NCBI GenBank assembly: GCA_031409655.1
Contig: JANNXQ010000213.1
Coordinates: 1 to 48,117 of the forward strand
Reading direction: 5' to 3'
Source: Chthoniobacteraceae bacterium
GTDB taxonomy: Bacteria; Verrucomicrobiota; Verrucomicrobiia; Chthoniobacterales; Chthoniobacteraceae
Length of the DNA: 48,117 nt
Shown here: positions 18,355 to 44,531 of the stretch, one piece after another
How positions within the stretch are numbered: position 1 is the first letter of the stretch
Layout: each line of letters starts with the position of its first letter
The notes under the pieces: generated by a model
What the model was told of the DNA's origin: nothing
What the model saw: only the letters and a program-made list of their open reading frames with translations
Database searches by the model: none
Translations under genes and position numbers: made by a program

Positions 18355-18382
18355 TTCGTCGTGGCCGCGCGCGATTCCTTAC
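18355..18382 (-). promoter_or_regulatory. Putative ECF promoter (GH63 operon)
   Basis: GTAAGGA-N14-CGACGAA. Confidence 0.8.
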
Positions 18383-18462
18383 AAACGGTGGAGAGGCGCG
18401 GGCCGCTCGCAGAAAGACAAAACGACTCGGGTGGTCCGCGGCCGCGTGGCAGCGGTTGCGAC

Positions 18463-19044
18463 CTAGGCGTTTACCTTTGCGACAAAATCCACGAGCGCGG
18501 CGGCGAGCTTAGCCACCTGCTTCGCCTGGCGCTCATCCTTGAGTTTTCCGGCGTCGTCGAAGGCTTCGTGGGCGGTGGGGATGGCGACTTGGTCGGGGAG
18601 GACGAGGACACCAATGTTGCCTAGGATGGAGCGCAGGGTGACGAGGCCGCGCAGGCCGCCGAGAGCGCCGGGTGAGGTGGCCATGAGCGCGGCGGCTTTG
18701 CCCTTGTAAGCCGCGAGCGGCGCCTCGTCGTCGGTCTCGGCGCGCGAGGCCCAGTCGATCGCGTTCTTCAGCGCGGCGGTGATCGAGCTGTTGTATTCCG
18801 GCGAGGCGATGAGGAAGCCGTCGCTCGCGCGGAGCAATGCTTTGAATTTCTTCGCGCCTTCGGGGAGTCCGCTGGTGGCCTCGAGGTCTTCATCGAAGAC
18901 CGGAAGGGCGAGGTCGCGGAGATCGACGACGGTGACTTCCGCGCCGGCCGCACGCGCGGCGTCGGCGGCGAGGGCGACGAGCTTTTTGTTGAAGGATCCG
19001 GTGCGCAGGCTGCCGGCGAAGGCGACGATTTTGGGTTGGCTCAT
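18463..19044 (-). CDS. NADPH-dependent FMN reductase
   Basis: FAGSLRTGSFN, ASPEYNSS, LKNAIDWASR, SPGALGG. Confidence 0.93.
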   Translation of the reverse strand: MSQPKIVAFAGSLRTGSFNKKLVALAADAARAAGAEVTVVDLRDLALPVFDEDLEATSGLPEGAKKFKALLRASDGFLIASPEYNSSITAALKNAIDWASRAETDDEAPLAAYKGKAAALMATSPGALGGLRGLVTLRSILGNIGVLVLPDQVAIPTAHEAFDDAGKLKDERQAKQVAKLAAALVDFVAKVNA

Positions 19045-19057
19045 GAGTGGTTTGGTA

Positions 19058-21115
19058 TCAGCCAAGGATGGTGTGTTCGAGGCGCAAGAGTTCGGCCAGC
19101 GACCAGGCTTGGAAGGGGCAGCCGCGCGGGGTGTGCGGGGACTCGGCATCGGCGATCTCGGAAATGTGGCCGAGGCCCGCGGTGGCGAGATGTTCGTGGA
19201 GCGGTGCGAGGAAGCGGGTGCGCGCTTCGGCTTTTGCTTCGGCGGCGTTTCCCATGATGCGCAGCCAGGCTTCGACGAATGGGCCGATGAGCCACGGCCA
19301 GACGGTGCCTTGATGATAACTGCCGTCACGCTGCCACACGCCGCCTTCGTAGCGCGGCGCGTAGTTTTGTTCGCCCGGCGCGAGCGAGCGGAGGCCGAGC
19401 GGCGTGAGGAGTTTCTCCTGCACAGTTTCGACGACGCGGCGAGCGCGCTCGCCTTCGAGCAACGCGAGGGGAAGTCCGCCGACGGCGAAGATTTGATTCG
19501 GGCGAATCGTGGCGTCGTTCACGCCGGGCTGGTGGTCGCAATCGATCACATCGAAAAGACCGCCGTTCGCCTCGTTCCAAAAGCGTTCGGCGAAGCTGGC
19601 GCGGGCTTTTTCGAACAGATGCTCCCAGCGCGATGATGATTGCAGGCCGATCCACAGTGCGTTGATCCACAGCGCCTGAATCTCGACGGGCTTGCCGATG
19701 CGCGGCGTGACGACCCAATCGCCGACTTTCGCGTCCATCCAGGTGAGTTGGACGCCGGGCTGGCCGCAGGCGAGCAGGCCGTCGTCATCGGCGCGGATGC
19801 CGAAGCGCGTCCCGCTGCTGTAGCCGGCGAGGATTTCCTCCACGGCCGTCCGCAGCGCTTGCGTATGACCGTCGGCGACGAACGTCGCGGGCCGTTGATC
19901 CTCGACGGCGCGGATGTATTCGTGGACGGCGATGACATACCAGAGCGAGGCATCCACGGAGTTGAACTCGGGCGTCTCGCCGCGATCGGGGAAGCGATTG
20001 GGCAGCATGCCTTCCGAGACGGCGCCGGCCCATTCGACCAAAATGTCGCGGGCGTCTTCGAGTCGTCCGGTGGCGATGCACAGACCGCGCAGGGCGATGA
20101 AGGTGTCGCGCCCCCAATCGCCGAACCACGGGTAGCCAGCGATGAGCGTGCGGCCCGCGCCGCGCTTCACGAGGTAGGCGTCCGCGGCGCGATGCAGCGG
20201 CGACTCGAAAGCTTCGCGGCGCGCGAGCTCGGTGCGCCGCGTCATGACGTAGAGTTCCTCGGTGGATTCGAGATGGTTGAGTGGCTGGCTCTCGGGCGCG
20301 AAGAGCCACACCGCAGGTTTCGCAGCGAGGTCCCAGTGGAAGGTGCCGGGCGAGGCGAGATCCTCGGTGGCGTCGAGGCCGCGCGCGGCTTCCTCGGCGT
20401 AGAGGAAATTGCGATACCACGTCGGCTCGTGGCGGTAGTGGCCGTTGCTGCGTGCGACGACGCCGGGCGCGCCGTCGTAAGGCTGCCACACGACATGCTC
20501 GAAGCTCTCGCTCGGCTCGAAACGGAACGCGCCGTTCTCGTGCTGCATTCCGTGAAAGTCGCGGGTGGAGAGGAACGGCCGCGCTTTCAGCGTCACCGAA
20601 CCGTGCAACTCGCCAATGAGTTTCCACGCGACGAAGACCGCCGACTTTCCATGCACCACAAAGATCTCCTGCTCGATCGCGAGATCGTCCGTCAGCCGCC
20701 ACGTCCAACGCGGCCACGGCTCGTGGGTGAAGCTTTCCAGCCGCGCGACGCCATCGGGATGCACCACATCCGGCGCGTAGCGTTGCGCGGAAATCGCGAA
20801 GGTGCCGTGCGGTGTTTCGACCCACGCGTCGAAGCCGTTGACCAGCGCCATGCGTCCTGCGGGCGGCGTGGTGGCCGTGAGCAGCAACGCGTGGTAGCGC
20901 CGGGCGCGGATGCCGGAGACGGTGCCGCTGGCGAAGCCGCCGAGGCCGTCGGCTTCGAGCCATTCGGCGTCGAGATCAAGGAGGGGCGGCTGCCAGCCGC
21001 CCTGCGTGGCCTCAGTCGCGCCAGTCGGAAAAGTGTCACGGCGCGGGAAGTGTGATTCGGCGGCAGGCTGCCGCCGCTCCTTGGGGGCGGCTTCGATCAA
21101 TGTGGATGCGTTCAT
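19058..21115 (-). CDS. Amylo-alpha-1,6-glucosidase (glycogen debranching, GDE_N/GDE_C)
   Basis: EWLEADGLGGFASGT, IAGYPWFGDWGRDTFI, QLTWMDAK, YHQGTVWPW, GCPFQAWS. Confidence 0.93.
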   Translation of the reverse strand: MNASTLIEAAPKERRQPAAESHFPRRDTFPTGATEATQGGWQPPLLDLDAEWLEADGLGGFASGTVSGIRARRYHALLLTATTPPAGRMALVNGFDAWVETPHGTFAISAQRYAPDVVHPDGVARLESFTHEPWPRWTWRLTDDLAIEQEIFVVHGKSAVFVAWKLIGELHGSVTLKARPFLSTRDFHGMQHENGAFRFEPSESFEHVVWQPYDGAPGVVARSNGHYRHEPTWYRNFLYAEEAARGLDATEDLASPGTFHWDLAAKPAVWLFAPESQPLNHLESTEELYVMTRRTELARREAFESPLHRAADAYLVKRGAGRTLIAGYPWFGDWGRDTFIALRGLCIATGRLEDARDILVEWAGAVSEGMLPNRFPDRGETPEFNSVDASLWYVIAVHEYIRAVEDQRPATFVADGHTQALRTAVEEILAGYSSGTRFGIRADDDGLLACGQPGVQLTWMDAKVGDWVVTPRIGKPVEIQALWINALWIGLQSSSRWEHLFEKARASFAERFWNEANGGLFDVIDCDHQPGVNDATIRPNQIFAVGGLPLALLEGERARRVVETVQEKLLTPLGLRSLAPGEQNYAPRYEGGVWQRDGSYHQGTVWPWLIGPFVEAWLRIMGNAAEAKAEARTRFLAPLHEHLATAGLGHISEIADAESPHTPRGCPFQAWSLAELLRLEHTILG
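20977..21083. repeat. REP doublet, in-frame at the GDE N-terminus
   Basis: CAAGGAGGGGCGGCTGCCAGCCGCCC...CGGCGGCAGGCTGCCGCCGCTCCTTG. Confidence 0.85.
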
Positions 21116-21195
21116 GGTTTAGACGGTGGAAGGTGGTTCGATGCGCAGCAGCAGGATGGCGAGCGACAGCGCAAGAGCGGCGAGCGAGGCCGCGC

Positions 21196-22053
21196 CTAGC
21201 CGCCGGTCTCGAAGCCCGGATAGAGCGTCATGCCGCCATCGACGAAGAGCGTGATGCCGTGGATGTAGTCGGCGTCGTCGCTGGCGAGCCACGCAGCGGC
21301 GCGGCCGATTTCGTTCGGCTCGCCGATGCGCTTGTAGGGGATGAGTTTCAGCAACTCGGCATAAGCTTCGGGCGTTTCCCACGCCGAGGTATTGATCGGC
21401 GTGCGAATGGCGCCGGGGGCGATCGAGTTCACGCGAATGCGCCACGGGGCGACTTCCTGGGCGATGCTTTTCATCATGAGCATCACACCGCCTTTCGACG
21501 TGGCGTAGTTCACATGCCCAGCCCACGGGATGACTTCATGCACCGAACTGATGCAAATGATCTTCCCCGCCGCGCACGAGACATCCGCGACGACCCCGCG
21601 CCGTTTGAATTCGCGCACCGCCTCGCGGGAGCAGAGAAACTGCCCGGTGAGATTCACGTCGATGACCCGCTGCCACTGCGCGAGCGTCATCTCGGAGAAG
21701 GGCGCATCGGACTGGAGCCCGGCGTTGTTCACCAGAATATCGACCGTCCCGAATTCCTCCTTCGCCGTCGCGAACATCGCCTGCACCTCCGCTTCCTTGG
21801 AAACATCGGCTTTCGCGGCGACTGCGTGGCTGCCACCATTCTCGATTTCGGCGACGACTTCCTCGGCCTTGTCTGGCCCGCTCACAAAGTTGACCACGAC
21901 ATTCGCGCCGGCCTTCCCGAGTTCGATCGCGATCGCCCGGCCAATCCCCGAGCTGGCGCCGGTGACGATGGCGGTCTGTCCTTCGAGCAAGCGGCGCACG
22001 GGCACGTTGGGAAGGACGGGTTGCGGGTAGTGGGAGTGGTGGTGTTTGTGCAT
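21196..22053 (-). CDS. SDR oxidoreductase (glucose 1-dehydrogenase-like)
   Basis: TGASSGIG, NNAG, SSVHEVIPW, YATSK, PGAIRTPIN. Confidence 0.92.
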   Translation of the reverse strand: MHKHHHSHYPQPVLPNVPVRRLLEGQTAIVTGASSGIGRAIAIELGKAGANVVVNFVSGPDKAEEVVAEIENGGSHAVAAKADVSKEAEVQAMFATAKEEFGTVDILVNNAGLQSDAPFSEMTLAQWQRVIDVNLTGQFLCSREAVREFKRRGVVADVSCAAGKIICISSVHEVIPWAGHVNYATSKGGVMLMMKSIAQEVAPWRIRVNSIAPGAIRTPINTSAWETPEAYAELLKLIPYKRIGEPNEIGRAAAWLASDDADYIHGITLFVDGGMTLYPGFETGG

Positions 22054-22289: not shown

Positions 22290-22913
22290 ATGAATGCACC
22301 TGAAACCAACGCGCCTCCTTCCCGGGCGGGAGCTTCGCGCGCCGATCCCGAACGCTGGGTCGATGAACACGGCGACTGCCTCTACCGCTACGCACTCACC
22401 CGCGTGCGCAAGGAGGAAGTCGCCGAGGATCTCGTGCAGGAGACGCTGCTCGTCGCCGTGCGCACGCACGAGAAATTCGGCGGACGCTCGACGGAGCGGA
22501 GTTGGCTCATCGGTATTTTGAAAAACAAAATCTGCGATCACTTTCGCAAGCTGGGTCGCGAGACAAACTTCACCGACCTCGAATTTTTCAGCGACGAGCA
22601 TTCGGACAAATTTGACGGCGAGAACTACTGGATTCACGAACGCGGCCCTTCGGACTGGAAGCCCGAGGGCGAGGAGGCGATGAAACGCGCGGAGTTTTGG
22701 CAGGCGCTGCAAGGTTGTCTCGGCAAGCTGCCCGAGCGCGGGGCGCAGGTCTTCATGCTGCGCGAAATGGACGACGTCCCGAGCAAGGAAGTGTGCGCGA
22801 CGCTGAACATCAGCGAGGCGAATCTGTGGGTGATGCTGCACCGTGCCCGTATGGCCCTGCGGCAATGCCTGGAGATGAACTTCTTCGACGGACCGGGAGG
22901 CGCGAAGCTGTGA
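22290..22913 (+). CDS. ECF RNA polymerase sigma-70 factor (TIGR02943-like)
   Basis: AEDLVQETLL, SWLIGILKNKI.D, CL.KLP, FMLRE, NLWVMLHRAR.ALRQCLE. Confidence 0.93.
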   Translation: MNAPETNAPPSRAGASRADPERWVDEHGDCLYRYALTRVRKEEVAEDLVQETLLVAVRTHEKFGGRSTERSWLIGILKNKICDHFRKLGRETNFTDLEFFSDEHSDKFDGENYWIHERGPSDWKPEGEEAMKRAEFWQALQGCLGKLPERGAQVFMLREMDDVPSKEVCATLNISEANLWVMLHRARMALRQCLEMNFFDGPGGAKL

Positions 22914-23215
22914 CTGAGCCGACCAACTGGTGGAAGACGAAGCTGGTCACCTTCATCGCCGCGCACACCCCGAAGTGCCACGACATGACCCGCCTCATCT
23001 CGCAATCGCTCGACCACCCGCTCCCGCTGCGCACACGGATCGCGATGTGGAGTCACTTCCGCATCTGCGTCTGGTGCGCGCGTTACCGCGATCAACTCGG
23101 TTTTATCGGCAAGGCAGTGAAATCCTGCTCGGAACAGGGCGCGGAGAAAATGCGCGGCGGGCTTTCACCGGAGGCGCGGACCCGGCTGAAGATCGCGGTG
23201 CAACCAAAGACCTGA
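22910..23215 (+). CDS. zf-HC2 anti-sigma factor 1
   Basis: GTG overlaps the sigma stop; C-x-HxxxCxxC (HFRICVWC); no TM helix. Confidence 0.85.
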   Translation: MTEPTNWWKTKLVTFIAAHTPKCHDMTRLISQSLDHPLPLRTRIAMWSHFRICVWCARYRDQLGFIGKAVKSCSEQGAEKMRGGLSPEARTRLKIAVQPKT

Positions 23216-23315: not shown

Positions 23316-23687
23316 GTGGCGCAATCACCTCACGACCATGCCCCGCCCCACTGGCTCAAGACGAAAGTCTCTGGCTGGTTCTGGTCGCTCACGCCCGCCT
23401 GCAAGGAAGTCTCGCGGCTGACCTCCGAGGGCCGCGACCGTGCGCTGCCCGTCGGGTTGCGCCTTCGCCTCGGCCTGCACCGTGCGTTTTGCAAATGGTG
23501 TGCGCGCTACGCCCGGCAGCTCGATTTCGTGCATGAGGCGAGTCAACTCTTCCCCGAGCACCTTGATCAGATCGCTGGGCCGACTCTCAAATGCGACGCC
23601 AAGACGCGGATGAAGCGAACGATCCAGGAAGCGGTGGAGAAACAAATCGTCGCCATGGGTGGGTCGGTTCTCTGCTTAATCGCCTGA
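23316..23687 (+). CDS. zf-HC2 anti-sigma factor 2
   Basis: C-x-HRAFCKWC; paralog of the preceding gene. Confidence 0.8.
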   Translation: MAQSPHDHAPPHWLKTKVSGWFWSLTPACKEVSRLTSEGRDRALPVGLRLRLGLHRAFCKWCARYARQLDFVHEASQLFPEHLDQIAGPTLKCDAKTRMKRTIQEAVEKQIVAMGGSVLCLIA

Positions 23688-24645: not shown

Positions 24646-24673
24646 GTAAGGATTCGCGGGCGGTGGCGACAAA
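24646..24673 (+). promoter_or_regulatory. Putative ECF promoter
   Basis: GTAAGGA-N14-CGACAAA. Confidence 0.75.
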
Positions 24674-24746
24674 GGAGGAGCGCTCTGTGGCCGTGCCACT
24701 GGGGGCGCTCAAACCAAAACAATAACCGACAAACCTCACTATCCAC

Positions 24747-25130
24747 ATGAACCTCAAATCCATCCTCACAACCTTCGCCGCGCTCGTCGCCACGGCCACC
24801 CTCTCGCTCGCCGAGCATCCCGAACACAAGACCGGAATGTTCGCAGGAGCCAAGGCTAACAAGGGCAACGCCACCCACTCGACCCACGACGGCAAGAGCG
24901 TGCTGAAAGTCTCCGACGACTTCGTCATTCCCGACACGCCCGCGCCGAGCTGGCAGGTCGTGGACTCGAAGGGCAACACCTATCTGCTCAATCAGATGAA
25001 GATCAAAGGCGGCACCAACCGTCAGGTGACGGTGCCGGCTTACGTCCAAGACATCGCCAAGGTGCAGGTGTGGTGCTCGTTCGCCGAGGTGCTGCTCGGT
25101 GAGGCGAAGTTCGAGAAACCCGTGAAGTAA
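24747..25130 (+). CDS. Secreted DM13-like domain protein
   Basis: Signal peptide; SDDF..PDTPAP, VWCSFAEVLLGEA. Confidence 0.65.
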   Translation: MNLKSILTTFAALVATATLSLAEHPEHKTGMFAGAKANKGNATHSTHDGKSVLKVSDDFVIPDTPAPSWQVVDSKGNTYLLNQMKIKGGTNRQVTVPAYVQDIAKVQVWCSFAEVLLGEAKFEKPVK

Positions 25131-25203
25131 CCAATCCGGCGCGGAACGCCGGTCGGTCCAAGCGACCGACCGGCACCGCCGTGGACTCTAAATACTCACC
25201 CTC

Positions 25204-26085
25204 ATGAAAACTCTCGCGCACACCTTTTCGGCTCTGCTCCTTCTTGCCAGCTTCGCACCCGCACAGGTCGCGGAAAAGAAGAGCCTCACCCTCGACGGCG
25301 CACGGCAGGTCATTGCCGGTGCGGTCGCTTATGCGAAAGCCAACCACGCCCCCGGCGGAGCCATCGCGGTCGTCGATGACGGCGGCAATTTGATGGCGCT
25401 CGAACGTCTCGACGGCACCTTTGCCGCGGGTCCCAATATCTCCATCGGCAAGGCGCGCACCTCGGCGCTCTTTAAGAAGCCGACGAAGTTTTTCGAGGAC
25501 GTGATCAACAAAGGCCGCACCGCGATGGCGGCGATGCATGAGAACTTCACGCCTCTGCAAGGCGGGGTGCCGATCCTCGTCGATGGGCAGGTCGTCGGCG
25601 CAATCGGCGTCAGCGGCGCGAGCAGCGCGCAGCAGGACGAAGAGGTCGCGATGGCAGGTGCGGCGGTGATCGCCGGCAGTCCGAAGACTGGCGCGGCGTC
25701 TCCTCCGACCGCGCCTGCGACGGTCTTCCACGCGAAGGATGTTCTCGCAGGATTTGCGAAAGACGGGCACCTGATCGAGACGGCTGCTTACAAGGTCAAC
25801 ACGAGTCGCCGCACGGAGCCAGGCCTCGCCGAGGTGCACGCGCGGGAGACGGACGTCTTTTACATCGTCGAAGGCAGCGCCACGCTAGTCCTCGGCGGCA
25901 CGGTCGTCGAGCCGCAGGCAGGCTCCTCCGCCGATGAAGTGCGCGGCAAGTCCATCGCCGGCGGCGAGACTCATCAACTCAAGCCGGGCGATGTCGTCGT
26001 CATCCCGCCGGGGACGCCGCATCAGTTCACCCACGTCAAAGGGCCATTTCACTACTTCGTCGTGAAACCCATCTCCAGCCGCTGA
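25204..26085 (+). CDS. GlcG/HbpS heme-binding protein fused to a cupin
   Basis: IAVVDDGG, KARTS, GGVPI..DG.VVGAIGVSG; C-terminal GDVVVIPPGTPH. Confidence 0.85.
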   Translation: MKTLAHTFSALLLLASFAPAQVAEKKSLTLDGARQVIAGAVAYAKANHAPGGAIAVVDDGGNLMALERLDGTFAAGPNISIGKARTSALFKKPTKFFEDVINKGRTAMAAMHENFTPLQGGVPILVDGQVVGAIGVSGASSAQQDEEVAMAGAAVIAGSPKTGAASPPTAPATVFHAKDVLAGFAKDGHLIETAAYKVNTSRRTEPGLAEVHARETDVFYIVEGSATLVLGGTVVEPQAGSSADEVRGKSIAGGETHQLKPGDVVVIPPGTPHQFTHVKGPFHYFVVKPISSR

Positions 26086-26129
26086 TTTTCCTGAACCCAA
26101 TCCGCACTAAACAACCAAACCAAACTCCT

Positions 26130-26591
26130 ATGAAAAAATACCTCATCACCACCCTCGCCCTCCTCGCCCTCGCGGTCGTCGCCAGCGCTGAAGAGCGCGT
26201 CAATGTCGATAAGCACGGCCTCGCGCTCCAGGGTTACGATCCCGTCGGTTACTTCACCGAAAGCCGGCCCGTGGAGGGCAACCCGTCCTTCTCGGCGACT
26301 TACAAAGGCGCGCTCTATCATTTCGCCTCGGCGAAAAACCGCGACGCCTTCCGCAAGAACCCCGCGAAGTATGAACCGCAATTCGGCGGCCACTGCGGCT
26401 TCGCGGCGTCCATCGATACAATCTCCCCGATCAGCCCGCACTACTGGCAGATCGTGAACGGACGCCTCGTGCTGCAACACAACCAGAAGGCGTGGAACCT
26501 CTGGACGAAGGACTTGAAAGGCAATCTCGCCAAGGCGGACGCGAACTGGCCGCACCTCAAAGAAAAGAAGGCCGGACTTTTCGGACGCTAG
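26130..26591 (+). CDS. YHS domain protein (secreted)
   Basis: GYDPVGYF, Y.FAS..N...F..NP.KYEPQFGGHC. Confidence 0.9.
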   Translation: MKKYLITTLALLALAVVASAEERVNVDKHGLALQGYDPVGYFTESRPVEGNPSFSATYKGALYHFASAKNRDAFRKNPAKYEPQFGGHCGFAASIDTISPISPHYWQIVNGRLVLQHNQKAWNLWTKDLKGNLAKADANWPHLKEKKAGLFGR

Positions 26592-26618
26592 ACCGCTTCC
26601 GCGCACCTTCGCACCGCT

Positions 26619-28220: not shown

Positions 28221-28237
28221 AGAACCCCGACACTGCC

Positions 28238-36346: not shown

Positions 36347-36403
36347 AGAGGAAGCCTACGCAGAACGGGCGATGGAGGTGCAGAAAAAATCCATTTCCGC
36401 GAC

Positions 36404-36431
36404 GTAAGGATTCCAAGCCCAACCCGACGAA
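36404..36431 (+). promoter_or_regulatory. Putative ECF promoter (msr operon)
   Basis: GTAAGGA-N14-CGACGAA. Confidence 0.8.
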
Positions 36432-36491
36432 GAGGGGAGCTGGCAATCGATTGCACTGGCCAAATTCATGAAACGCATCCGCCTCCACTCC

Positions 36492-36619
36492 TCATCGTGC
36501 AATCAGCCGAGCCAGTCGCTCGTTCTCCCATCGACATCACGAAGCTCCCGCTTGGCGGTCGCCGCGCCGCTCTGGTGCGCGATCCCGACGGACACGCGGT
36601 GCAACTCACTGAACCCTGA
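36492..36619 (+). repeat. 128-bp direct repeat, copy 2
   Basis: Duplicate of 34398-34525, directly before the msr ATG. Confidence 0.9.
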
Positions 36620-36622
36620 CCT

Positions 36623-37666
36623 ATGACCAAACGCACTTTTCTCACGACGATCCTCGGCAGCGCGGGCATTCTCGCCGCGGCCAGCCAGCTCCACTTCCGC
36701 AAAGGCTCTACGAATATGAATACCGACACCTCACCTGTCACCGTCCGCCTGCTCGATGAATCCGGCGCGCTCACCGCGCCGATCTCGGTGCCGAAGGTCG
36801 TGAAGTCCGACGCGGCCTGGCGCGTGCAGCTCACCGACGAACAGTTTCGCGTCACGCGCACGGAGGGCACCGAGCGCGCGTTCTGCGGCATCTTTCACGA
36901 CAACCACAAGGCGGGTCTCTACACCTGCGTCGGCTGCGGACTGCCGCTCTTTCGCTCGGATGCGAAATTTGAGTCCGGCACGGGCTGGCCGAGCTTCTTC
37001 CAGCCGGTCGCGAAGGAGAACATCGGCGAGACGCGCGACGTGAGCTTTGGCATGGCCCGCACGGAGGTCCACTGCGCGCGGTGCGACTCGCATTTCGGGC
37101 ATGTCTTCGAGGACGGGCCGGCGCCGACCGGGCTGCGCTATTGCATGAACTCCGCGTCGATGTCCTTTCGCGAGGATGGGGCGAAGCCGGCGCGGGAAAA
37201 GGCGCTCTTCGGCGCGGGTTGCTTTTGGGGCGTCGAGGCGGATTTCGCGAAAGTGAAAGGTGTGACGGCCACACGGGTCGGCTACTCCGGCGGCATGACG
37301 AAGAACCCGAGCTATGACGACGTGTGCGCGCACAACACCGGCCATGCCGAGGTGGTCGAGGTGGAATACGATCCCGCGCAACTCAACTTCGCCGCGCTGC
37401 TCGATGCCTTTTGGGAAGCGCATGATCCGACCACGCATCATCGCCAGGGGCCGGACGTGGGCAGCCAGTATCGGTCAGCGATCTTTTTCACCACGCCCGA
37501 GCAGGAAGCCGCGGCCCGCGCATCCGCAGCACGACTGGAAAAGAGCGGTAAACTTTCCGGCGCAATCACGACCGAGATCGCGCTCGCGACGCCGTTCTAC
37601 GCGGCGGAGGAGTATCACCAGAAATACTACGCGAAAAAGGGCGGCGGGAGCTGCCGCATCCCATGA
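36623..37666 (+). CDS. msrAB: Bifunctional methionine sulfoxide reductase MsrB-MsrA with Tat-like leader
   Basis: [22 protein letters not shown] (MsrB); [26 protein letters not shown] (MsrA). Confidence 0.96.
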
Positions 37667-38082
37667 TCGAAAGCGTCTTCACCGCGCTGGTGAATACCGC
37701 CGCGATTTATGCCGGGTGCGGTTTGATCGTCGCGGTGCTCTTCCTCGCACTTTGGTGCAAGTCATTCGATCCATCGGCAATGGAAGGTTCGTGGGGCTTT
37801 CGCGTGCTCATCGTGCCGGGGATCGTCGCACTTTGGCCGGTAATTCTCGCGAAAGTGCTGGCCGTCCGGCGCGGCGGCAGCGCGCAGGGACCGGCGGAAA
37901 CTCCGGTCCGGCAGGAGACGCTGCGGCGCAATCACGGGCTCGCGTTCATCGCACTGGCGATCCTCGGACCGCTGCTTTTCGCGGTGGCATTTGTCTGGCG
38001 CGCGCCGGAGATCCCAAGGAGCGGCGGCAGCCTGCCGCCGGTGGCGCTCCAGGGCGGCAAGCTGCCGCCCCTCCCTGAATAA
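37663..38082 (+). CDS. Small membrane protein
   Basis: Three hydrophobic segments, [13 protein letters not shown]; translationally coupled; tail encoded by a REP doublet. Confidence 0.7.
38015..38077. repeat. REP doublet forming the C-terminus of 37663-38082
   Basis: CAAGGAGCGGCGGCAGCCTGCCGCCG...GGGCGGCAAGCTGCCGCCC-CTCCCTG. Confidence 0.85.
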
Positions 38083-38083
38083 C

Positions 38084-39997
38084 ATGGGGCACGCCTACAA
38101 AGCCGTCGGCTGGAACCGGCAGAAGAAGCTCTACGACTTCACGCTGCTCGGCCTCGTCCTGCTCGCCGCGAGTGTCTTCGGCACGATCACCGCGCTCCGG
38201 CATCCGGGCACGACGGCGGAGACTTTCATCATCCGCTTCACGTCGGTCGCGGCGTTTCTGCTGCTCCACGTCATTCTGGTTATCGGCCCGCTCGCGCGAC
38301 TCGATACGCGCTTCCTCCCGCTGCTCTACAACCGGCGCCATCTCGGCGTGACGATGGCGCTGCTCGCGCTCGTGCATGGCGTCTTCGCGATCATCCAGTT
38401 CCACGCGCTCGGCGACACGAACCCGCTGGTCAGCGTCTTCACCGCCTATGGCCGCGACTACGCCACGCCTTTCACCGACTTCCGCTCCATCTCGCAATTC
38501 CCGTTCGAGATCTTCGGCTTCGGCGCGCTCGTCATTCTCTTCGTCATGGCCGCGACGAGCCACGATTTCTGGCTGCGCAATCTCGGCCCATCCGTGTGGA
38601 AGGCGCTGCACCAGCTCGTGTATGTCGCCTATTCGCTGCTCCTCGCGCACGTGCTCTTCGGCGCCCTGCAATCCGAGCGCAGCCCGGTCTATCCGGTGCT
38701 GCTCGGGCTCGGCTTCGTGAGTATCGTTGGGCCGCATCTTCTCGCTGCGCGAAAAGAGCGGGCGTCGGATCGGCAGCGCACATCCGCGGAAGCGGATGGT
38801 TTCTTCGCCGTGGCGAAAGCGGACGAACTGCGCGAGGGCGAAGGCAAAGTCGTCGTCGCGGGCGGCCAGCGGCTTGCACTCTACGCCCAAGGTGGGCGCG
38901 TCTTCGCGCTCTCGAATGTCTGCCGGCATCAGGGTGGGCCGGTGGGTGAGGGGCGCATCGTCCACGGCTGCATCACCTGCCCCTGGCACGGCTTTCAATA
39001 CAAGGCCGAGGACGGGTGCAGTCCGCCGCCGTTCAACGAAGTGCTGCCGACTTATCCCGTGCGGATCGTTGGCGATGCGATCTTCCTTTCTCCGCAGGCT
39101 CTTCCGCTCGGAAGCAAATCGGACGGAGTGGAACTCAAGGAGCCGGGGCGTCCCGCCCCGAACGAACACGCTGGGGCCGGGACGGCCCCACTCCTTGAAC
39201 GGTCGTTCTTCATCGGCTGGCAATCGAAGCTGACGCCCGCCCTCTCGCGTTTCATTCGTAGAGCGACCATCGCCCTTGCCGCGCTCGTGCCCGTGGTCGT
39301 CGGGGCTGCGGTTTGGTTTCAGCATCCGGTGGATCGCGGGCGCTTCGAGTTTGGCGTCGAGAAGCAATTCGAGGGCGTGCTTTACGAGCGCCCGATCCCG
39401 CGGCTGCGCCTTGCGACCGCGGATGGAAAGCAGGTCGATCATGTGCTCGTCGGCGCTGGGAAATTTGGTCCGCCAGCCGTCATCGCGGGTGCGCACGGTA
39501 AGCGCGTGCGCTTCAGCGGCAGCCTCATCGTCCGCGAGCCGCTGCACCTGATCGAACTCAATCGCCCCGACACCTTCACGATCCTCGACCGCGACGCCAA
39601 ACCCGCCGCCGAGCCTGCCGTGTCGCCGCTCGGAGAAGGCCGCTTCGTCGGCGAACTCGTGGACACGAAATGTTATTCCGGCGTCATGCGCCCTGCGACG
39701 GGGAAGGTCCACCGCGCCTGCGCCATTCGCTGCCTGAGCGGCGGTGTCCCGCCCGGCCTGCTCGTGCGAGATCGCAACGGCGATGGCGTGGTCTTCCTCC
39801 TCGCCGGTCCCGGCGACGCGCCGCTGAGCTACGATGTGCAACTGGCCGGCACGCTCATTGAGGTGGAAGGCGCGCTGGAGTTGAACGGCGAGACGCCGGT
39901 GCTGCGCGCCGCGTCAATCCGCCCTCATCCATCGAACACGCGGCTGCGCGCGTTCTCTTTCCTTGAAGCAAAACAACCCAAACAAAACAAACCATGA
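38084..39997 (+). CDS. Ferric reductase-like (MsrQ-type) TM domain + Rieske [2Fe-2S] + extra C-terminal Cys domain
   Basis: RRHLG, WKALHQLVY; CRHQGGP..CPWHG; C-terminal DTKCY.G.M.P..GK.HRACA..C.SGG. Confidence 0.85.
   Translation: MGHAYKAVGWNRQKKLYDFTLLGLVLLAASVFGTITALRHPGTTAETFIIRFTSVAAFLLLHVILVIGPLARLDTRFLPLLYNRRHLGVTMALLALVHGVFAIIQFHALGDTNPLVSVFTAYGRDYATPFTDFRSISQFPFEIFGFGALVILFVMAATSHDFWLRNLGPSVWKALHQLVYVAYSLLLAHVLFGALQSERSPVYPVLLGLGFVSIVGPHLLAARKERASDRQRTSAEADGFFAVAKADELREGEGKVVVAGGQRLALYAQGGRVFALSNVCRHQGGPVGEGRIVHGCITCPWHGFQYKAEDGCSPPPFNEVLPTYPVRIVGDAIFLSPQALPLGSKSDGVELKEPGRPAPNEHAGAGTAPLLERSFFIGWQSKLTPALSRFIRRATIALAALVPVVVGAAVWFQHPVDRGRFEFGVEKQFEGVLYERPIPRLRLATADGKQVDHVLVGAGKFGPPAVIAGAHGKRVRFSGSLIVREPLHLIELNRPDTFTILDRDAKPAAEPAVSPLGEGRFVGELVDTKCYSGVMRPATGKVHRACAIRCLSGGVPPGLLVRDRNGDGVVFLLAGPGDAPLSYDVQLAGTLIEVEGALELNGETPVLRAASIRPHPSNTRLRAFSFLEAKQPKQNKP
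39136..39197. repeat. REP doublet, in-frame at the Rieske/C-terminal domain junction
   Basis: CAAGGAGCCGGGGCGTCCCGCCCCG...TGGGGCCGGGACGGCCCCA-CTCCTTG. Confidence 0.8.
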
Positions 39998-40446
39998 CGA
40001 CAAACTCGAATCCCACTGAATCCACACGCCGCGATACCCTCAAAGTGCTCGCTGCAGCCGCCATCGGCCTCGCCAGCGCCGCCACGTCGCGGGCGGCCGA
40101 GCATGCCTCCCACACCAGCAGCCATGCCGAGCACTGCGCCAGAGCCTGCGCCGCCTCGCTTATCGAATGCGCGAAACACATCCACCATTGCACGGAGCAT
40201 CTGGTCGCTGGAAAAAAGGAGTATGCGCGCTGCCTTGAACTCTGCGCCGCTTGCTCGCAGATCTGCGGCACGTGCGCCAGCGCGTGCTTCAGTCCACTCG
40301 CGAAGACGATGGCCGAGGCTTGTGCAAAGGCCTGCGAGGAGTGCGCCGCCGAGTGCGAAAAGTTCAAGGATGACGCGGCGATGATGCAGTGCGCGAAGAC
40401 CTGCCGCGACTGCGCCAAGGCGTGCCGCGAACTGGCGCGCATTTGA
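39994..40446 (+). CDS. Tat-exported Cys-rich four-helix bundle (Csp-like copper storage protein)
   Basis: TRRDTLK signal; repeated CxxxC/CxxC motifs. Confidence 0.85.
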   Translation: MTTNSNPTESTRRDTLKVLAAAAIGLASAATSRAAEHASHTSSHAEHCARACAASLIECAKHIHHCTEHLVAGKKEYARCLELCAACSQICGTCASACFSPLAKTMAEACAKACEECAAECEKFKDDAAMMQCAKTCRDCAKACRELARI

Positions 40447-41088: not shown

Positions 41089-41116
41089 GTAAGGAATTCG
41101 CCCCAGTCCCGACGAA
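41089..41116 (+). promoter_or_regulatory. Putative ECF promoter
   Basis: GTAAGGA-N14-CGACGAA, 6 nt before ATG 41123. Confidence 0.8.
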
Positions 41117-41122
41117 TCGCCC

Positions 41123-41536
41123 ATGAACACCACCATGCAAGCCCTCAGCAAACCGGAGGTCATCGTGAGCTGGATCTGTCGCGTCGTCGCGGCGGTCATC
41201 CTGCTGCAGACGCTCTTCTTCAAATTCACCGGCGCGCCCGAGTCGGTCTATATCTTTACCCAAGTAGGGCTGGAGCCGTGGGGCCGCATCGGCTCCGGTG
41301 TCGCGGAACTCATCGCGGCGATCCTGCTTTTCGTGCCGGGGACGACGTGGCTCGGCGCGGGCCTGGCGCTTGGGGTCATGGGCGGGGCGATCATGAGCCA
41401 TCTCACCGTGCTCGGCATCGTGGTGAAGGATGACGGCGGGTTGCTCTTCGGCCTCGCGGTGGTCGTGGCCCTTTGTTCGTCCGTCGTGCTTTTCATTCAT
41501 CGCAAGGCGCTGCCCATCGTCGGAGGTTCGCTATGA
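41123..41536 (+). CDS. DoxX-like membrane protein
   Basis: QTLFFKFTGAPESVYIF, GRIGSGVAEL, GAIMSHL. Confidence 0.88.
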   Translation: MNTTMQALSKPEVIVSWICRVVAAVILLQTLFFKFTGAPESVYIFTQVGLEPWGRIGSGVAELIAAILLFVPGTTWLGAGLALGVMGGAIMSHLTVLGIVVKDDGGLLFGLAVVVALCSSVVLFIHRKALPIVGGSL

Positions 41537-43659
41537 ACGAGCAGACGATTCTTCGCGGCGTGACCGAAGTGCTCCGGCAGGGCGAAACGCTCCTGCACGC
41601 GCTTGATGACGCGGCTTACACGACGCGGATTCCCGGCGCCTTCAATGCCAGCATTGGGGGCCACTACCGGCATTGCCTGGATCACTTCCAGAGCCTGCTC
41701 GATGCGCTCGATGCCGATGAAGTGAACTACGACCATCGCCAGCGCGACCCGCGGATCGAGACGGAGCGCGACTTCGCCGCAAGTGAGACGCGCCGCATTT
41801 TCCAAGGTATCGAATCCATTCCCGATGAGTGGCTTCGTCGCCCGCTATTCGCGCGCTGCAAGGTCAGCTATGGCGATGAGGAAGCGCCGGTCATGCCTTC
41901 CACCATCGGTCGCGAGCTGATGTATGCCGTGGCGCACGCGATTCATCACTACGCGCTCATCGGCATAATGTGCGGGATGCAAGGTGTGCCGCTGCCGGCG
42001 GGCTTCGGCGTCGCGCCATCGACGCTCAAGCATCAGGCCGACGAAGCAAGGAGCGGGGCCGAAGCTGCCGGGCTTTTTGCGCTGACCTTTCTCTCGGAGG
42101 ATGCCGCGGTGCTGAGCGCGGCGGTCATGGTCGCGAGCGGGATGCTGCCGTGGGAACTCGGTTTCGCCGCGTGCTTCTTCGGCATCTGGCTCGGCGACCT
42201 GTGGCTCTACGGCATGGCGCGGGCGTTCGGTGCGCCGTTCGCGGCGCGCTTCGAGGTGGCTCCGGCGATGATGCGCAGCCAGGCTTGGTTTGCGAAACGC
42301 GGGGCGTTGGTCCTGGTGGTGAGCCGGTTCGTGCCGGGGCTGCGCCTGCCGAGCTATCTCGCCGCCGGGGCGATGCGGTTTCCGGTGAAGATGTTCACGC
42401 TGGTGACGGGCCTGGTCGCAGCGGTCTGGGTGGCGGCAATCTTTGTGGGCGGGCATTTCCTCGGCGTCGGGAAGATTCCATTTCTCCGCGATCACGCGAT
42501 CTGGCTGGCCGTCGGAGCAGTCGCCACGGCGGGCGCTTCGATGGCCTTGAAGTCGCTGCTCCGGCGCCCGGCGGCACGACAACAACTCGCCCGGTTTTCC
42601 CAATGGCTCGCGCCTATGCGCCGCTGGACGCAGTGGGAGTTTTGGCCGTCGTGGTTGTTCTATACGCCGGTCGGTTTCTTCTATGCGTGGCTCGGTCTGC
42701 GACATCGCAGCTTCACGCTGCCGACCGCGGCGAATCCGGGCATTCCGATGGGCGGTCTCGTCGGCGAATCGAAGTATGACACGTTGCGCCTCCTCCAGAA
42801 CACCTGTCCGAATGAAACCGCGCAGACTTGGTTGATTGAGCCGGCCAACGTCGATGCTCGCTTCGCCGAACTGCACAAGCTCGTCGAAAGCCAGGCCGTC
42901 GCACTGCCCTTCATCTTGAAGCCGGACGTCGGCCAGCGCGGCGTAGGCGTGAAGCTGATTCGTTCAATGGATGCTGCCCACGAATACCTCGCCGCCGTCA
43001 GCGTGCCGGTGCTCCTCCAGCGCTACGCGCCGGGGCCGCGCGAAGTCGGCGTCTTCTACTACCGCCTGCCCGATGAACCGACCGGCCACATCTTCGCGAT
43101 CACCGAGAAGATTTTCCCAGTCATCGAAGGCGATGGCGAACGCACGGTCGAGGAGCTGATTCTCGCCGATCCTCGGGCCGCGATCGTCGCACACACCTAT
43201 CTGCGACGCTTTGCCGATTTGCGCGACACCGTGCTCGCCCGCGGCGAGACGCTCAAGCTCGTCGAGGCCGGCAATCACGCGCAGGGCTGTATTTTCCAGG
43301 ACGGGATGCACCTCGCCACGCCGGAACTGCTGAAAGCGCTGGATCGCATCTCGCAGTCGGTGCCCGGCTTTTACATCGGCCGCTACGACATCCGCTACGC
43401 GACCGACGATGACCTGCGAGCCGGTCGCGGCCTCGCCATTCTGGAGTTGAACGGCGCGGGGGCCGAAGCCACGAGCATCTACGACGCGCGCAACACGCTG
43501 CTCTCCGCCTACCGCACGCTCTACCGCCAATGGGAACTCGTCTTCCGCATCGGCGCGCTTAACCGCACCCGCGGTGCGCGCCCCGCCTCCATCCCGACGC
43601 TCCTCCGTGAATGGCGGCGCACGTCCGCACTCATCGCGGACTATCCCCACGCCGACTGA
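41533..43659 (+). CDS. Fusion: DinB-like domain + DedA/VTT domain + ATP-grasp-like domain
   Basis: SIGGHYRH.LDHF, HAIHHYA (DinB); TFLSED, SRFVPGLR (DedA); WEFWP, ANPG, LKPDVGQRG.GV, GRYDIR, ELNG (ATP-grasp). Confidence 0.8.
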   Translation: MNEQTILRGVTEVLRQGETLLHALDDAAYTTRIPGAFNASIGGHYRHCLDHFQSLLDALDADEVNYDHRQRDPRIETERDFAASETRRIFQGIESIPDEWLRRPLFARCKVSYGDEEAPVMPSTIGRELMYAVAHAIHHYALIGIMCGMQGVPLPAGFGVAPSTLKHQADEARSGAEAAGLFALTFLSEDAAVLSAAVMVASGMLPWELGFAACFFGIWLGDLWLYGMARAFGAPFAARFEVAPAMMRSQAWFAKRGALVLVVSRFVPGLRLPSYLAAGAMRFPVKMFTLVTGLVAAVWVAAIFVGGHFLGVGKIPFLRDHAIWLAVGAVATAGASMALKSLLRRPAARQQLARFSQWLAPMRRWTQWEFWPSWLFYTPVGFFYAWLGLRHRSFTLPTAANPGIPMGGLVGESKYDTLRLLQNTCPNETAQTWLIEPANVDARFAELHKLVESQAVALPFILKPDVGQRGVGVKLIRSMDAAHEYLAAVSVPVLLQRYAPGPREVGVFYYRLPDEPTGHIFAITEKIFPVIEGDGERTVEELILADPRAAIVAHTYLRRFADLRDTVLARGETLKLVEAGNHAQGCIFQDGMHLATPELLKALDRISQSVPGFYIGRYDIRYATDDDLRAGRGLAILELNGAGAEATSIYDARNTLLSAYRTLYRQWELVFRIGALNRTRGARPASIPTLLREWRRTSALIADYPHAD
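42047..42060 (+). repeat. Half-REP scar at the DinB/DedA junction
   Basis: CAAGGAGCGGGGCC, identical to the start of the 33504 REP. Confidence 0.55.
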
Positions 43660-44531
43660 TGTGTTCTGTCTCCTTCCTTCCGCATGCGCGCGGCTTTTAC
43701 GTCGCGATGAACCGCGACGAATCGCTGCAGCGCCCAGCGGCTAATCCGCCCGCGCGCTTTACCCGAGTTGGACGCGTCGCGCTTTATCCCACGGAGCCCA
43801 CCGGTGGCTCGTGGGTGGGTGTGAATGATGCCGGCCTCACGCTCGCGTTGATCAACTGGTATGCGATTCCGCGCGAATCGGGCATCGGTCGCGTGAGCCG
43901 CGGCGTCGTCGTGCCGTCGCTGCTTGCCGCGACGAGTGTGGAGGAAGCGCGTGCCGCCATCGCCGCGCTGCCGAAACAAGACATGGCACCATTTCGTCTG
44001 CTCATCTTCGCGCCGCACGAACGAAAGACGTTCGAGTTTCGCTGGGATCAACACGCGCTCGACGAAGTGCCGCACGCGTGGGAGCCGCGGCACTGGTTTT
44101 CTTCCGGCTACGACGAGCCACGCGCCCAGCTCGAGCGCGGCCAGGTCGCCTGCGAAGCGTCGCGGGAAGCTCGCGCGGGCAGTCTGCCGTGGCTGCGCCG
44201 GCTGCACGGTTCGCACGAGCCGGCGCGCGGGCCGTTTTGCTTTTGCATGCACCGAAAAGACGCGGCGACGGTCAGCTATACCGAAGTCGTCGTCACCCAT
44301 CGGGCTGCCACGATGCGCTACCACGACGGCCCGCTCTGCATTGCGCCACATCCGAGCACGACGCACAAAATTTCCCTGCAAGCGGCATGTAAGGAATCCC
44401 TGCTGATCCCGACGAATCAGCAACCAGGAGACCACCATGAAAACCACGAATCCTCGCTTCAATCGTCTTGTCGCCCGCTACTACCCAGCGGTCTTTCACC
44501 TCGCGGCGACCTTCTCGAAATCGCCCACTGA
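43659..44531 (+). CDS. NRDE/TANGO2-like Ntn-hydrolase family protein
   Basis: MCSVSF start, NRDE, GGSW.GVN..G, SRG, TVS; C-terminus runs on over the next promoter and gene. Confidence 0.85.
   Translation: MCSVSFLPHARGFYVAMNRDESLQRPAANPPARFTRVGRVALYPTEPTGGSWVGVNDAGLTLALINWYAIPRESGIGRVSRGVVVPSLLAATSVEEARAAIAALPKQDMAPFRLLIFAPHERKTFEFRWDQHALDEVPHAWEPRHWFSSGYDEPRAQLERGQVACEASREARAGSLPWLRRLHGSHEPARGPFCFCMHRKDAATVSYTEVVVTHRAATMRYHDGPLCIAPHPSTTHKISLQAACKESLLIPTNQQPGDHHENHESSLQSSCRPLLPSGLSPRGDLLEIAH
44389..44416 (+). promoter_or_regulatory. Putative ECF promoter
   Basis: GTAAGGA-N14-CGACGAA. Confidence 0.8.

Follow-up and report, generated by a model that had tools for sequence, protein, structure and literature searches.

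The 48,117-nucleotide stretch of DNA considered here, hereafter the window, is an entire contig (C213) of a metagenome bin (G000) assigned to the Chthoniobacterales, phylum Verrucomicrobiota, from soil or sediment. It carries ten copies of a two-box motif, GTAAGGA-N14-CGACGAA, and it is highly probable that these are the promoters of an extracytoplasmic function (ECF) sigma factor encoded in their midst, at positions 22290-22913, and that this sigma factor falls in the group that contains sigmaE/Ecf of Neisseria and RpoE2 of Haemophilus. A switch made up of a sigma factor of this type, ECF293, and a small zinc-binding anti-sigma (ZAS) protein is already known; the system described here is a larger and tightly packaged example of it. 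The parts of this account that we infer are the dependence of the sites on the sigma factor, the transcription start sites, the inducing signal, and the past mobility of the segment in which the system lies.

Ten motif copies and the sigma factor encoded among them

An earlier note on this DNA had placed ten copies of the motif on the contig, and a scan of the window at up to two mismatches recovers all of them at the same coordinates and on the same strands. The ten matches compare with 0.27 expected by shuffling, where the largest value in any shuffle was 2; for exact copies, the comparison is six against 0.00 in 100 shuffles. The copies are given below; offsets count the nucleotides that separate the motif from the likely start codon.

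P1, 18355..18382, minus strand: exact motif; ATG 28 nt downstream
P2, 22111..22138, minus strand: exact motif; divergent from the sigma gene; offset 57 nt
P3, 23280..23307, plus strand: weakest copy, two mismatches; GTG of the anti-sigma gene AS2 8 nt downstream
P4, 24646-24673, plus strand: one mismatch; offset 73 nt
P5, 29110-29137, plus strand: one mismatch; offset 15 nt
P6, 31113-31140, plus strand: exact motif; ATG 8 nt after the motif
P7, 36404-36431, plus strand: exact motif; 191 nt to the ATG of MsrBA at 36623
P8, 40541-40568, plus strand: one mismatch; ATG 7 nt after the motif
P9, 41089-41116, plus strand: exact motif; DoxX ATG 6 nt downstream
P10, 44389-44416, plus strand: exact motif; offset 20 nt

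Together the ten sites span 26 kb, all inside one 32.3-kb segment. Their alignment gives the consensus T-GTAAGG-A-W-T ... C-CGAC-N-A-A, and the motif can be recast in terms of -35 and -10 elements as TGTAAGGWWT-N12-CGACNAA. In the assembly as a whole (6,853,817 bases in 306 contigs), all six exact copies with a spacing of 14 lie in the window, as do three of the five copies with one mismatch and one of the 45 with two. The refined form TGTAAGGW-N14-CGACNAA finds the window sites as six exact and four one-mismatch copies, and in the 6.8 Mb outside the window it finds no exact copy, two with one mismatch, and 35 with two; at up to one mismatch, 10 of the 12 sites in 6.85 Mb are therefore in the window. 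The two outside sites are probably due to chance, because both lie within long open frames (of 1274 and 1065 aa). The claim that the motif is confined to this part of the genome thus holds in the sense that no credible copy occurs elsewhere in the assembled 94.9% of it, and the frequency of the motif in the window is not that of the background.

It might be supposed that such sites are not promoters at all but conventional transcription factor-binding sites, or copies of a small repeated element. The sites are known from sequence alone, coding sequence ends shortly before P3 and P7, and the longest open frame of a TANGO2-like gene extends with an unconserved tail into P10, which is the one caveat to the earlier statement that the sites stand upstream of, and co-oriented with, operons. 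Against this, the motif consists of two short boxes at a fixed gap of 14 nt with a spacer of free sequence and neither palindromic nor direct-repeat symmetry, every copy is co-oriented with the next gene, and the arrangement fits the layout of ECF promoters and the Neisseria consensus described below. The flanks of the ten sites are mutually unrelated, so the sites are not copies of a mobile repeat. Start codons, moreover, peak 5-8 nt downstream of the motif. In the window they follow it at 8 nt (AS2), 8 nt (GMC oxidoreductase), 7 nt (YHS2), and 6 nt (DoxX); in relatives, 39 of 114 first open reading frames (ORFs) begin 5-8 nt after it, and 21 of 118 sites have an ATG or GTG at precisely offset 8, compared with 0-5 at each of the offsets 0-4. 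We regard a nonpromoter function as extremely unlikely. The pile-up of start codons in this interval suggests that four of the ten messages would be leaderless, with 0-2 untranslated bases if transcription starts as mapped in gonococci.

The earlier note had also placed an ECF sigma gene and zinc anti-sigma genes among the sites, and this is what is found: the sigma gene is followed by genes for two soluble ZAS proteins, AS1 and AS2.

22290..22913, plus strand: ECF sigma factor, ECF293-like, 207 aa from the most likely start, ATG 22290
22910..23215, plus strand: anti-sigma AS1 (ZAS), 101 aa; GTG start, with a 4-nt overlap with the sigma stop
23316..23687, plus strand: anti-sigma AS2 (ZAS), behind P3; NF052368 at 53.1 bits, cut-off 50

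The sigma factor contains only regions 2 and 4 (PF04542, Sigma70_r2, 1.2e-13; PF08281, r4_2, 3.1e-12) and exceeds the cut-offs of TIGR02937 (69 bits against 42.9) and TIGR02943 (173.7 bits against 162.2). Assignment to ECF18, first considered from the TIGR02943 match, was dropped given the description of ECF293. As characterized in the portion of Casas-Pastor 2021 devoted to it (PMC7826278), ECF293 has an extended linker between sigma2 and sigma4, three cysteines in sigma4 (in most of its subgroups), and a soluble zinc-finger anti-sigma factor at position +1. A role in oxidative stress is considered likely there; the group has a few Verrucomicrobial members, and its studied members are Ecf of N. 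gonorrhoeae and RpoE of N. meningitidis. Each of the three traits is present here, in the form of a linker of about 48 aa (region 2 ends at about residue 121 and region 4 runs from 169, in the numbering of the 238-aa ORF), three sigma4 cysteines (in QGC, EVC, and RQC) that all appear in a 45-sequence consensus, with C169 invariant, and AS1 at +1. By these traits, the protein fits a description as ECF293-like.

Promoter recognition points in the same direction. In the promoter analysis of Hopman 2010 (PMC2893595), Neisseria sigmaE is reported to use a -35 element GTMAGBWTT (GTAAGGTT in meningococci) and a -10 element CGTCTAAH separated by 12-13 nt, with the start site, mapped in gonococci, 6 nt past the -10 element. 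The Neisseria regulon comprises the rpoE operon, which includes a DoxX gene, and msrAB. Set out in the Neisseria layout, the motif in the window reads GTAAGGAWT-N12-CGACGAA, in which the -35 core and the geometry match and the third base of the -10 element is A instead of T. The kinship with the msrAB-controlling ECF system of Neisseria at which the earlier note had hinted is therefore borne out by the ECF293 traits, the shared -35 core and spacing, and the presence of MsrBA and DoxX among the targets.

The association between sigma factor and motif extends to relatives. In a set of 41 genomes that includes G000, an orthologue of the sigma factor (threshold E ≤ 1e-40) occurs in three (G000, G021, and G022), and the exact motif, with R allowed at the fifth -10 base, occurs in five: the same three, with 8, 4, and 1 copies, plus G005 and G027, with one apiece. 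The genomes that hold the sigma factor thus carry 13 of the 15 exact copies; a reversed control pattern gave single matches in three genomes. Around 58 sigma orthologues (844,224 bases), 118 sites were found at up to two mismatches, with at least one at 50 of the 58 loci. The corresponding background in G000 outside the window, 46 sites in 6.8 Mb, makes this an enrichment of about 20-fold. A position that formed no part of the selection, immediately before the -35 element, is T in 83% of the 118 sites. Clustering around the sigma gene is also seen in individual genomes: 8 of 11 exact sites lie within 33 kb in G042, 6 of 7 sites at up to one mismatch within 18 kb in G044, and 3 of 4 exact sites within 11 kb in G043. 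Gene order is largely conserved in these three genomes and at loci L003 and L004, and that of the P4 unit is the same in G042, L003, and L004. The nearest named orthologue of the sigma factor, at 78% identity, is that of Chthoniobacter flavus Ellin428.

A downstream ORF is present at 114 of the 118 sites, of which 113 were scanned for families after one duplicate, the GMC gene of L008, was dropped. The first genes after the motif belong to SDR (9), YHS (9), DoxX (8), GMC (6), NDH2-type (4), MsrBA/MsrB (3), GH63 (3), OlsB-like (3), and MIP (2) families, and many others encode small proteins without a Pfam family, several of which are the anti-sigma factor according to tblastn coordinates. The GMC gene follows the motif at 7-8 nt in six loci, and GH63 and OlsB-like orthologues are preceded by it in L019, L020, and L022 and in L045, L046, and L053, respectively. 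ECF sigma genes stand behind the motif in 10 loci. In three of them (L040, L046, and L048), this is the orthologous sigma gene itself, and in seven (L030, L035, and the Acidobacterial loci L049-L052 and L056) it is a second, different ECF sigma gene. Family traits, promoter likeness, co-occurrence and enrichment, and conserved targets together support the view that the motif is read by the sigma factor of the window.

Three further observations concern these loci. The second ECF sigma factor, in L049-L052, L056, L030, and L035, is ~30% identical to that of the window and is encoded ~2 kb from the orthologous sigma gene; such a second, motif-driven factor may constitute a sigma cascade. At the C. 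flavus locus (L011 1868-6370), an exact motif lies 9 nt before the gene for a 1500-aa autotransporter, a target found in no other locus; DoxX and further genes at L011 are likewise preceded by motif copies. Finally, a contig labelled as Candidatus Acidoferrum (Acidobacteriota; L010) encodes a sigma factor that hardly differs from the one in a Verrucomicrobial bin (L009), and is either mis-binned or the product of a very recent transfer.

Another question is whether some other ECF sigma factor reads these promoters, so that the one encoded in the cluster would be a bystander or itself a target. The sigma gene lacks a motif of its own, an ORF resembling sigma region 2 lies behind P10, a second ECF sigma gene stands behind the motif in L030, L035, and five Acidobacterial loci, and a first look at the genome gave 29 sigma-like candidates. 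Set against these are the concentration of 13 of 15 exact copies in the three genomes with a sigma orthologue, the occurrence of the motif before the orthologous sigma gene (L040, L046, and L048) and before the anti-sigma gene in many loci, and the identity of the -35 core with that of the homologous Neisseria sigma factor. The ORF behind P10 encodes only 73 aa and cannot recognize a promoter, because regions 2.3-2.4 and 4 are absent. On balance, recognition by another sigma factor seems very unlikely.

A number of points nevertheless weigh against assigning the ten sites, and a response to stress, to the sigma factor of the cluster. Scans of the window found no motif copy, even a weaker one, upstream of the sigma gene, and no sigma-70-like promoter was recognized in 22000-23800. 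Regulation of the sigma gene in this genome may be atypical, because a STAS-domain gene and a sigma-54 activator gene that lie between the SDR gene and the sigma gene in most close relatives have been deleted here. The STAS-domain gene is found directly upstream of the sigma gene in L001-L005, L008, L009, and L011, preceded at least in L003 (L003 6544-10017) by the gene for the 986-aa activator (PAS-GAF-GAF-PAS-AAA+-HTH). In the window and in L006, P2 with its SDR gene abuts the sigma gene instead, and a 3' remnant of the STAS-domain gene (~100 nt) persists in the window at about 22200-22289. The 29 first-look candidates for related sigma genes mean that another could read the motif, and the bin is incomplete (94.9% complete, 5.26% contamination). 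The sigma factor was placed by described traits rather than by the group's hidden Markov model or by alignment with the Neisseria protein. A search of sequencing runs found no RNA run containing the stretch, and not every ZAS protein senses oxidation. Promoter motifs are described as not conserved between ECF293 subgroups in the account of the group (PMC7826278), and the inducing stimulus in meningococci was not found, according to the sections of Hopman 2010 on regulation (PMC2893595).

Anti-sigma factors and the genes behind the ten probable promoters

AS1 and AS2 are paralogues (35% identical) without any hydrophobic segment, and both contain the motif C-x25-H-x3-C-x2-C. The ZAS signature is C/H-x23-26-H-x3-C-x2-C. 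The predicted ligands of AS2 (C29, H55, C59, and C62) are invariant in 21 AS2 sequences. At L001-L005 and L007, the match to AS1 starts at the coordinate where that to the sigma factor ends. An ORF at 22930-23283 was rejected as a gene, as it runs over AS1 in a different frame. Modeling of the sigma-AS2 complex returned a score of 0.79, compared with 0.01 for the best control; this mark is reached by 116 of 157 solved complexes and by 2 of 215 mismatched pairs, and likeness to solved sigma/anti-sigma complexes of this class, which exist, may raise it. No relative was found when an AS2 profile was searched against PDB sequences. Model runs had at least 91% of contacts in common and a partner pLDDT (per-residue model confidence) of at least 77, and the modeled contacts fall in residues 18-58 and 155-195 and cover both sigma2 and sigma4. 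As a prediction, the model supports binding of AS2 to the sigma factor.

Gene calls in the segment rest on third-position GC (guanine plus cytosine) content, Pfam, and NCBIfam. The units behind the remaining nine promoters are as follows.

14725..15318, minus strand: PlsC-type acyltransferase (PF01553, E 1.8e-15), possible last gene of unit P1
15561..18326, minus strand: unit P1, GH63/MGH1-like glycoside hydrolase (PF22422 9.8e-29, PF03200 9.2e-12)
18463..22053, minus strand: unit P2, SDR 21196-22053, GDE-like amylo-1,6-glucosidase 19058-21115, FMN reductase about 18463-19060 (Pfam)
24646..29071, plus strand: unit P4, secreted 127-aa protein (weak DM13), GlcG/HbpS-like protein with cupin, YHS1, SMP-30/gluconolactonase-like protein, MIP channel
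29110..30069, plus strand: unit P5, secreted redoxin 29153-29689, chlorite dismutase-like C-terminal fragment about 29704-30069
31113..34525, plus strand: unit P6, GMC oxidoreductase 31149-32747, VOC/glyoxalase protein 32744-34525
36404..40446, plus strand: unit P7, MsrBA 36623-37666, 139-aa protein with three transmembrane segments, MsrQ-like ferric reductase with Rieske domain 37991-39997, Csp1-like protein 39994-40446
40541 to 41070, plus strand: unit P8, secreted YHS2
41089..44400, plus strand: unit P9, DoxX, fusion of DinB_2, DedA/VTT, and weak ATP-grasp 41473-43659, TANGO2-like protein 43611 to about 44400
44389..46350, plus strand: unit P10, 73-aa ORF resembling sigma region 2 44437-44658, GNAT/OlsB-like N-acyltransferase 44748-45512, PlsC/OlsA-like acyltransferase 45517-46350

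Counted in this way, the ten units hold about 25 genes, fewer than the ~30 of the earlier note. Membership of the PlsC-type gene in unit P1 is putative; it is co-oriented and lies 243 nt past the GH63-like gene. The products are mostly those that had been named (MsrBA, MsrQ-like/Rieske, redoxin, the chlorite dismutase-like fragment, GlcG, two YHS proteins, DoxX, GMC, VOC, glycoside hydrolases, and acyltransferases), with the exception of two labels that are weak: the DM13 match has an E value of 0.053, under the Pfam cut-off, and "Csp" refers to a Csp1-like, cysteine-rich four-helix bundle protein that scores under the NCBIfam cut-off. At least eight products begin with a signal peptide (the 127-aa protein, the GlcG-like protein, YHS1, YHS2, the SMP-30-like protein, redoxin, MsrBA, and the Csp1-like protein, whose signal is of the twin-arginine type), and so the output of the regulon is largely directed to the envelope.

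Five genes of the segment stand outside the regulon.

23676-24578, minus strand: alpha/beta hydrolase, no motif
30079-30740: VapBC pair, no motif
34526..36491, minus strand: inserted cassette with DUF4276 (34539-35147) and an AAA_21 ATPase, OLD/AbiEii-like (35144-36346)

The cassette, 1966 nt in length, lies between the VOC and MsrBA genes, and the 3' end of the VOC gene is duplicated on either side of it, in two 128-nt copies that are 98% identical (34398-34525 and 36492-36619). Its third-position GC content (0.60-0.61, against 0.76-0.83 in the neighboring genes) is foreign. In L004, L007, L008, G042, and G043, MsrBA follows directly after VOC with no promoter copy between them, and in the window an exact copy, P7, lies within the last 140 nt on the right of the insert. 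No relative of these 140 nt was found in the loci or elsewhere in the genome. The exact P7 at the right end of the insert thus suggests that the downstream half of the broken operon, with MsrBA, kept its control. A 52-aa ORF at 36468-36626, with its ATG 36 nt after P7, is not a gene; it derives from the duplicated VOC 3' end.

For the 73-aa ORF behind P10, the Pfam match (E 3e-5) is confined to sigma region 2.1-2.2. Conservation of the ORF amounts to 77% in G042 and is partial in G043, and in each case the OlsB-like gene comes after it. BLASTP detected no similarity between it and the sigma factor of the segment; it is 29% identical over 55 aa to the N terminus of the second, motif-driven ECF sigma factor of L030. 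The ORF could represent either a remnant or a small regulatory protein.

Two pairs of imperfect direct repeats were also noted in this region, at 32757-32825 and 38015-38083 (72% identical) and at 17482-17530 and 20954-21002 (82% identical). Both have a GC-rich inverted core (GGCGGCAGCCTGCCGCC and GGGGCGGCTGCCAGCCGCCC) and lie at or inside gene ends, and they may represent a small dispersed hairpin repeat.

Boundaries and possible mobility of the segment

The sigma gene, both anti-sigma genes, and all ten promoters lie in the 32.3 kb (14434-46721) between two perfect copies of a 45-nt sequence.

14389..14433, plus strand: left direct repeat, the 3' half of tRNA-Pro(GGG) from anticodon loop to 3' end; att-like
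46722..46766, plus strand: right direct repeat, a perfect copy of the left one

The repeat is identical to the 3' half of an intact tRNA-Pro(GGG) on contig C187, where an integrase gene (95022-95393) lies directly behind the tRNA and a half copy follows 24.8 kb downstream. This region of C187 (94167-119089) looks like a complete integrative island, and the combination of intact tRNA, integrase, and half copy is evidence that tRNA-Pro serves this genome as a functional attachment site. In the window, ARAGORN and Rfam call no tRNA at the two repeats, and the contig holds no integrase: PF00589 has 12 matches in the genome, none of them here, and no remnant was found either. To the left of the left repeat, 175 nt match the right end of the C187 island at 80% identity. 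Upstream of each repeat stands a 16-mer, GTGCCGCTCTGTGCCG, that is found at these two places and nowhere else in the genome. The left flank contains an IS630-type transposase and accessory genes. Contigs of four DNA runs cover 9000-19000 only as short unitigs, which are interrupted at the tRNA-like repeat and have numerous unrelated loose ends. On the simplest reading of these sequences, two elements integrated in tandem at a tRNA-Pro site, and the right-hand one lost its integrase and the intact tRNA end.

Distribution bears on the same question. The sigma factor and motif were not found in three genomes of the same genus (97, 96, and 74% complete), and of 21 other genera in the family, 19 likewise gave neither. 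Beyond the phylum, Acidobacterial loci and one Planctomycete locus have the sigma factor with parts of the same gene order; the GMC and GH63 proteins of L049 are 71 and 60% identical to those of the window, above some Verrucomicrobial values. In a tree of sigma factors rooted on the second sigmas, the Acidobacterial/Planctomycete clade is nested in Verrucomicrobia (97/86 and 99/94), with a long outgroup branch that leaves the root uncertain. The earlier description of the system as portable is favored by the bounding tRNA-Pro half repeats and the patchy distribution, and not by the missing integrase or the host-like composition.

Alternatively, the segment could be an old, vertically inherited neighborhood that many lineages have lost, with the tRNA-Pro half repeats belonging to neighboring elements. 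Such an origin would account for the lack of an integrase in the segment and of an intact tRNA at its ends, and for its flank-like composition, since a GC content of 0.59-0.66 inside and 0.53-0.66 outside presents no contrast, the inserted DUF4276/AAA_21 cassette being the one stretch that stands apart. It would also sit well with the five relatives in which no tRNA-Pro repeat was found beside the cluster (G041-G044, and G022, where the nearest copy is 59 kb away). The left repeat ends another element, because its left arm is 80% identical to the C187 island end, and the distribution of the sigma factor in Verrucomicrobia needs only one label change in the tree. The opposing evidence consists of the failure to find sigma factor and motif in the three congeneric genomes, with their presence in 2 of the 21 other genera; the perfect 45-nt repeats, which enclose exactly the segment with the ten promoters; the confinement of the 16-mer to the upstream sides of both repeats; and the nesting inside Verrucomicrobia of Acidobacterial and Planctomycete sigma factors that share gene order. 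We consider purely vertical descent possible but doubtful, and it seems fairly likely, from the sequence features of its ends and its distribution, that the segment was once mobile.

Other features lie to the left of the segment. The RNA repair genes at 9071-14162 (RlaP, an unknown, RtcB, and an HNH endonuclease) recur on contig C77 as a second copy of ~90% identity, and the set terminates in the arm that matches the right end of the C187 island at 80%. A dense array of six tRNAs (6750-7735) comes right after the IS630/DDE_3 transposase gene (5658-6689); ARAGORN calls four short "tRNA-Leu" of 73-77 nt, Rfam gives one more at 6942-7014, and fragments extend to about 7735. A search of the window against Rfam gave nothing beyond six tRNAs at 6750-7530.

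Known systems, proposed mechanism, and meaning

The closest described counterparts are the sigmaE (Ecf; NMB2144/NGO1944) and MseR of Neisseria, assigned to ECF293s9. As presented in the parts of PMC2893595 and PMC3240639 that deal with them, they share with the system of the window an ECF sigma gene adjoining that of a small soluble ZAS anti-sigma factor, a -35 GTAAGG and a CG(T/A)C -10 with 12-13 nt from the 9-mer to the -10 element, and a methionine sulfoxide reductase and a DoxX protein among the targets. The same descriptions give two promoters and about 7-11 genes in Neisseria, compared with ten promoters and about 25 genes here. They leave msrAB unlinked to the sigma gene, whereas here all targets lie beside it, and they include one anti-sigma factor rather than two paralogues, one of them under sigma control. 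The -10 element is CGTCTAA in Neisseria and CGACGAA here, and the Neisseria DoxX partners DUF692/DUF2063 are absent from the window.

RpoE2 of Haemophilus influenzae, as set out in the main account of that system (PMC7907618), is paired with a 67-aa ZAS anti-sigma factor, HrsE. It is induced by hypochlorous acid (HOCl) and H2O2, and its targets are msrAB and a DoxX operon. It resembles the present system in that a cytoplasmic ZAS sensor governs periplasmic repair (MsrAB) and a DoxX operon, with msrAB near the sigma gene. In contrast, its regulon is described there as small, partly dispersed, and overlapping with that of OxyR, and the genes given for it do not include the YHS, Csp1-like, GMC/VOC, glycosidase, and lipid genes seen here. 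The SigR-RsrA pair of Streptomyces coelicolor (ECF12; PMC3177212), the model for redox sensing by a ZAS switch, likewise has a soluble anti-sigma factor with an H-x3-C-x2-C zinc site, released by thiol oxidation, and a regulon that includes msr and thiol-redox genes, with sigma-dependent feedback. It belongs to another ECF group; the genes that it controls are numerous and scattered, and their products are cytoplasmic instead of exported. The SigR promoter is GGAAT-N18-GTT, unlike the motif here. Among the papers searched, none describes a Verrucomicrobial ECF regulon like this one.

The following mechanism can be proposed. In unstressed cells, the sigma factor would be held by the two small soluble zinc-binding anti-sigma factors. 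Given the overlap of its start with the stop of the sigma gene, AS1 would be made along with the sigma factor; AS2, whose gene stands behind P3, would rise after induction and for that reason could shut the response off. A thiol-reactive insult would strike the Cys/His zinc site and free the sigma factor, the likeliest insults being oxidants such as H2O2 or HOCl, with copper and electrophiles as alternatives. RNA polymerase carrying the sigma factor would then read TGTAAGGWWT (-35) and CGACNAA (-10) and start about 6-8 nt past the -10 element. The expected output would consist of methionine sulfoxide repair (MsrBA, the MsrQ-like/Rieske electron donor, and redoxin), copper or metal buffering (the two YHS proteins and the Csp1-like protein), redox and electrophile enzymes (DoxX, FMN reductase, GMC, VOC, and the DinB-type protein), sugar hydrolases, and amino-lipid synthesis (OlsB/OlsA-like). 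The 32.3-kb segment that contains the sigma factor, its sensors, and all of the promoters would most simply be a decayed integrative island.

As to the inducing signal, we would put oxidants including HOCl at about an even chance, by analogy, because of the Msr enzymes, the redoxin, and the response of RpoE2 to HOCl and H2O2. Electrophiles or other signals account for the remaining weight beside copper, and the set of DoxX, VOC, FMN reductase, and DinB proteins resembles the quinone/electrophile responses of Bacillus. Copper is suggested by the two exported YHS proteins, the exported Csp1-like protein, and the link of DoxX to copper-binding peptides, and is a possible but rather unlikely candidate on such analogies. 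The DoxX link has been described in Haemophilus and others, in the portions of PMC11626156 and PMC11252979 that address it.

More speculatively, and with a probability that we would rate as low, the segment may be a self-sufficient stress module that moves as one piece, and that has spread in Verrucomicrobia and into Acidobacteria and Planctomycetes. Its coherence would then have been selected, as at P7, and the 73-aa protein might be a decoy for an anti-sigma factor or for core polymerase. If this is true, a recipient of the module would gain a complete, insulated regulon without any rewiring.

The system is a clean and tractable case in a poorly studied phylum, in which a cultured relative, Chthoniobacter flavus Ellin428, has the orthologous sigma factor. 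It places several poorly understood families under one switch, among them the TANGO2-like protein, the DinB-DedA-ATP-grasp fusion, secreted YHS proteins, the weak DM13-like protein, the MsrQ-like/Rieske fusion, and the exported Csp1-like protein. These families would thereby gain a testable functional context, because such switches answer oxidants in other bacteria. The regulon also shows how far the small sigmaE regulon of Neisseria and Haemophilus can expand, and it may show how a whole regulon is packaged for horizontal transfer.

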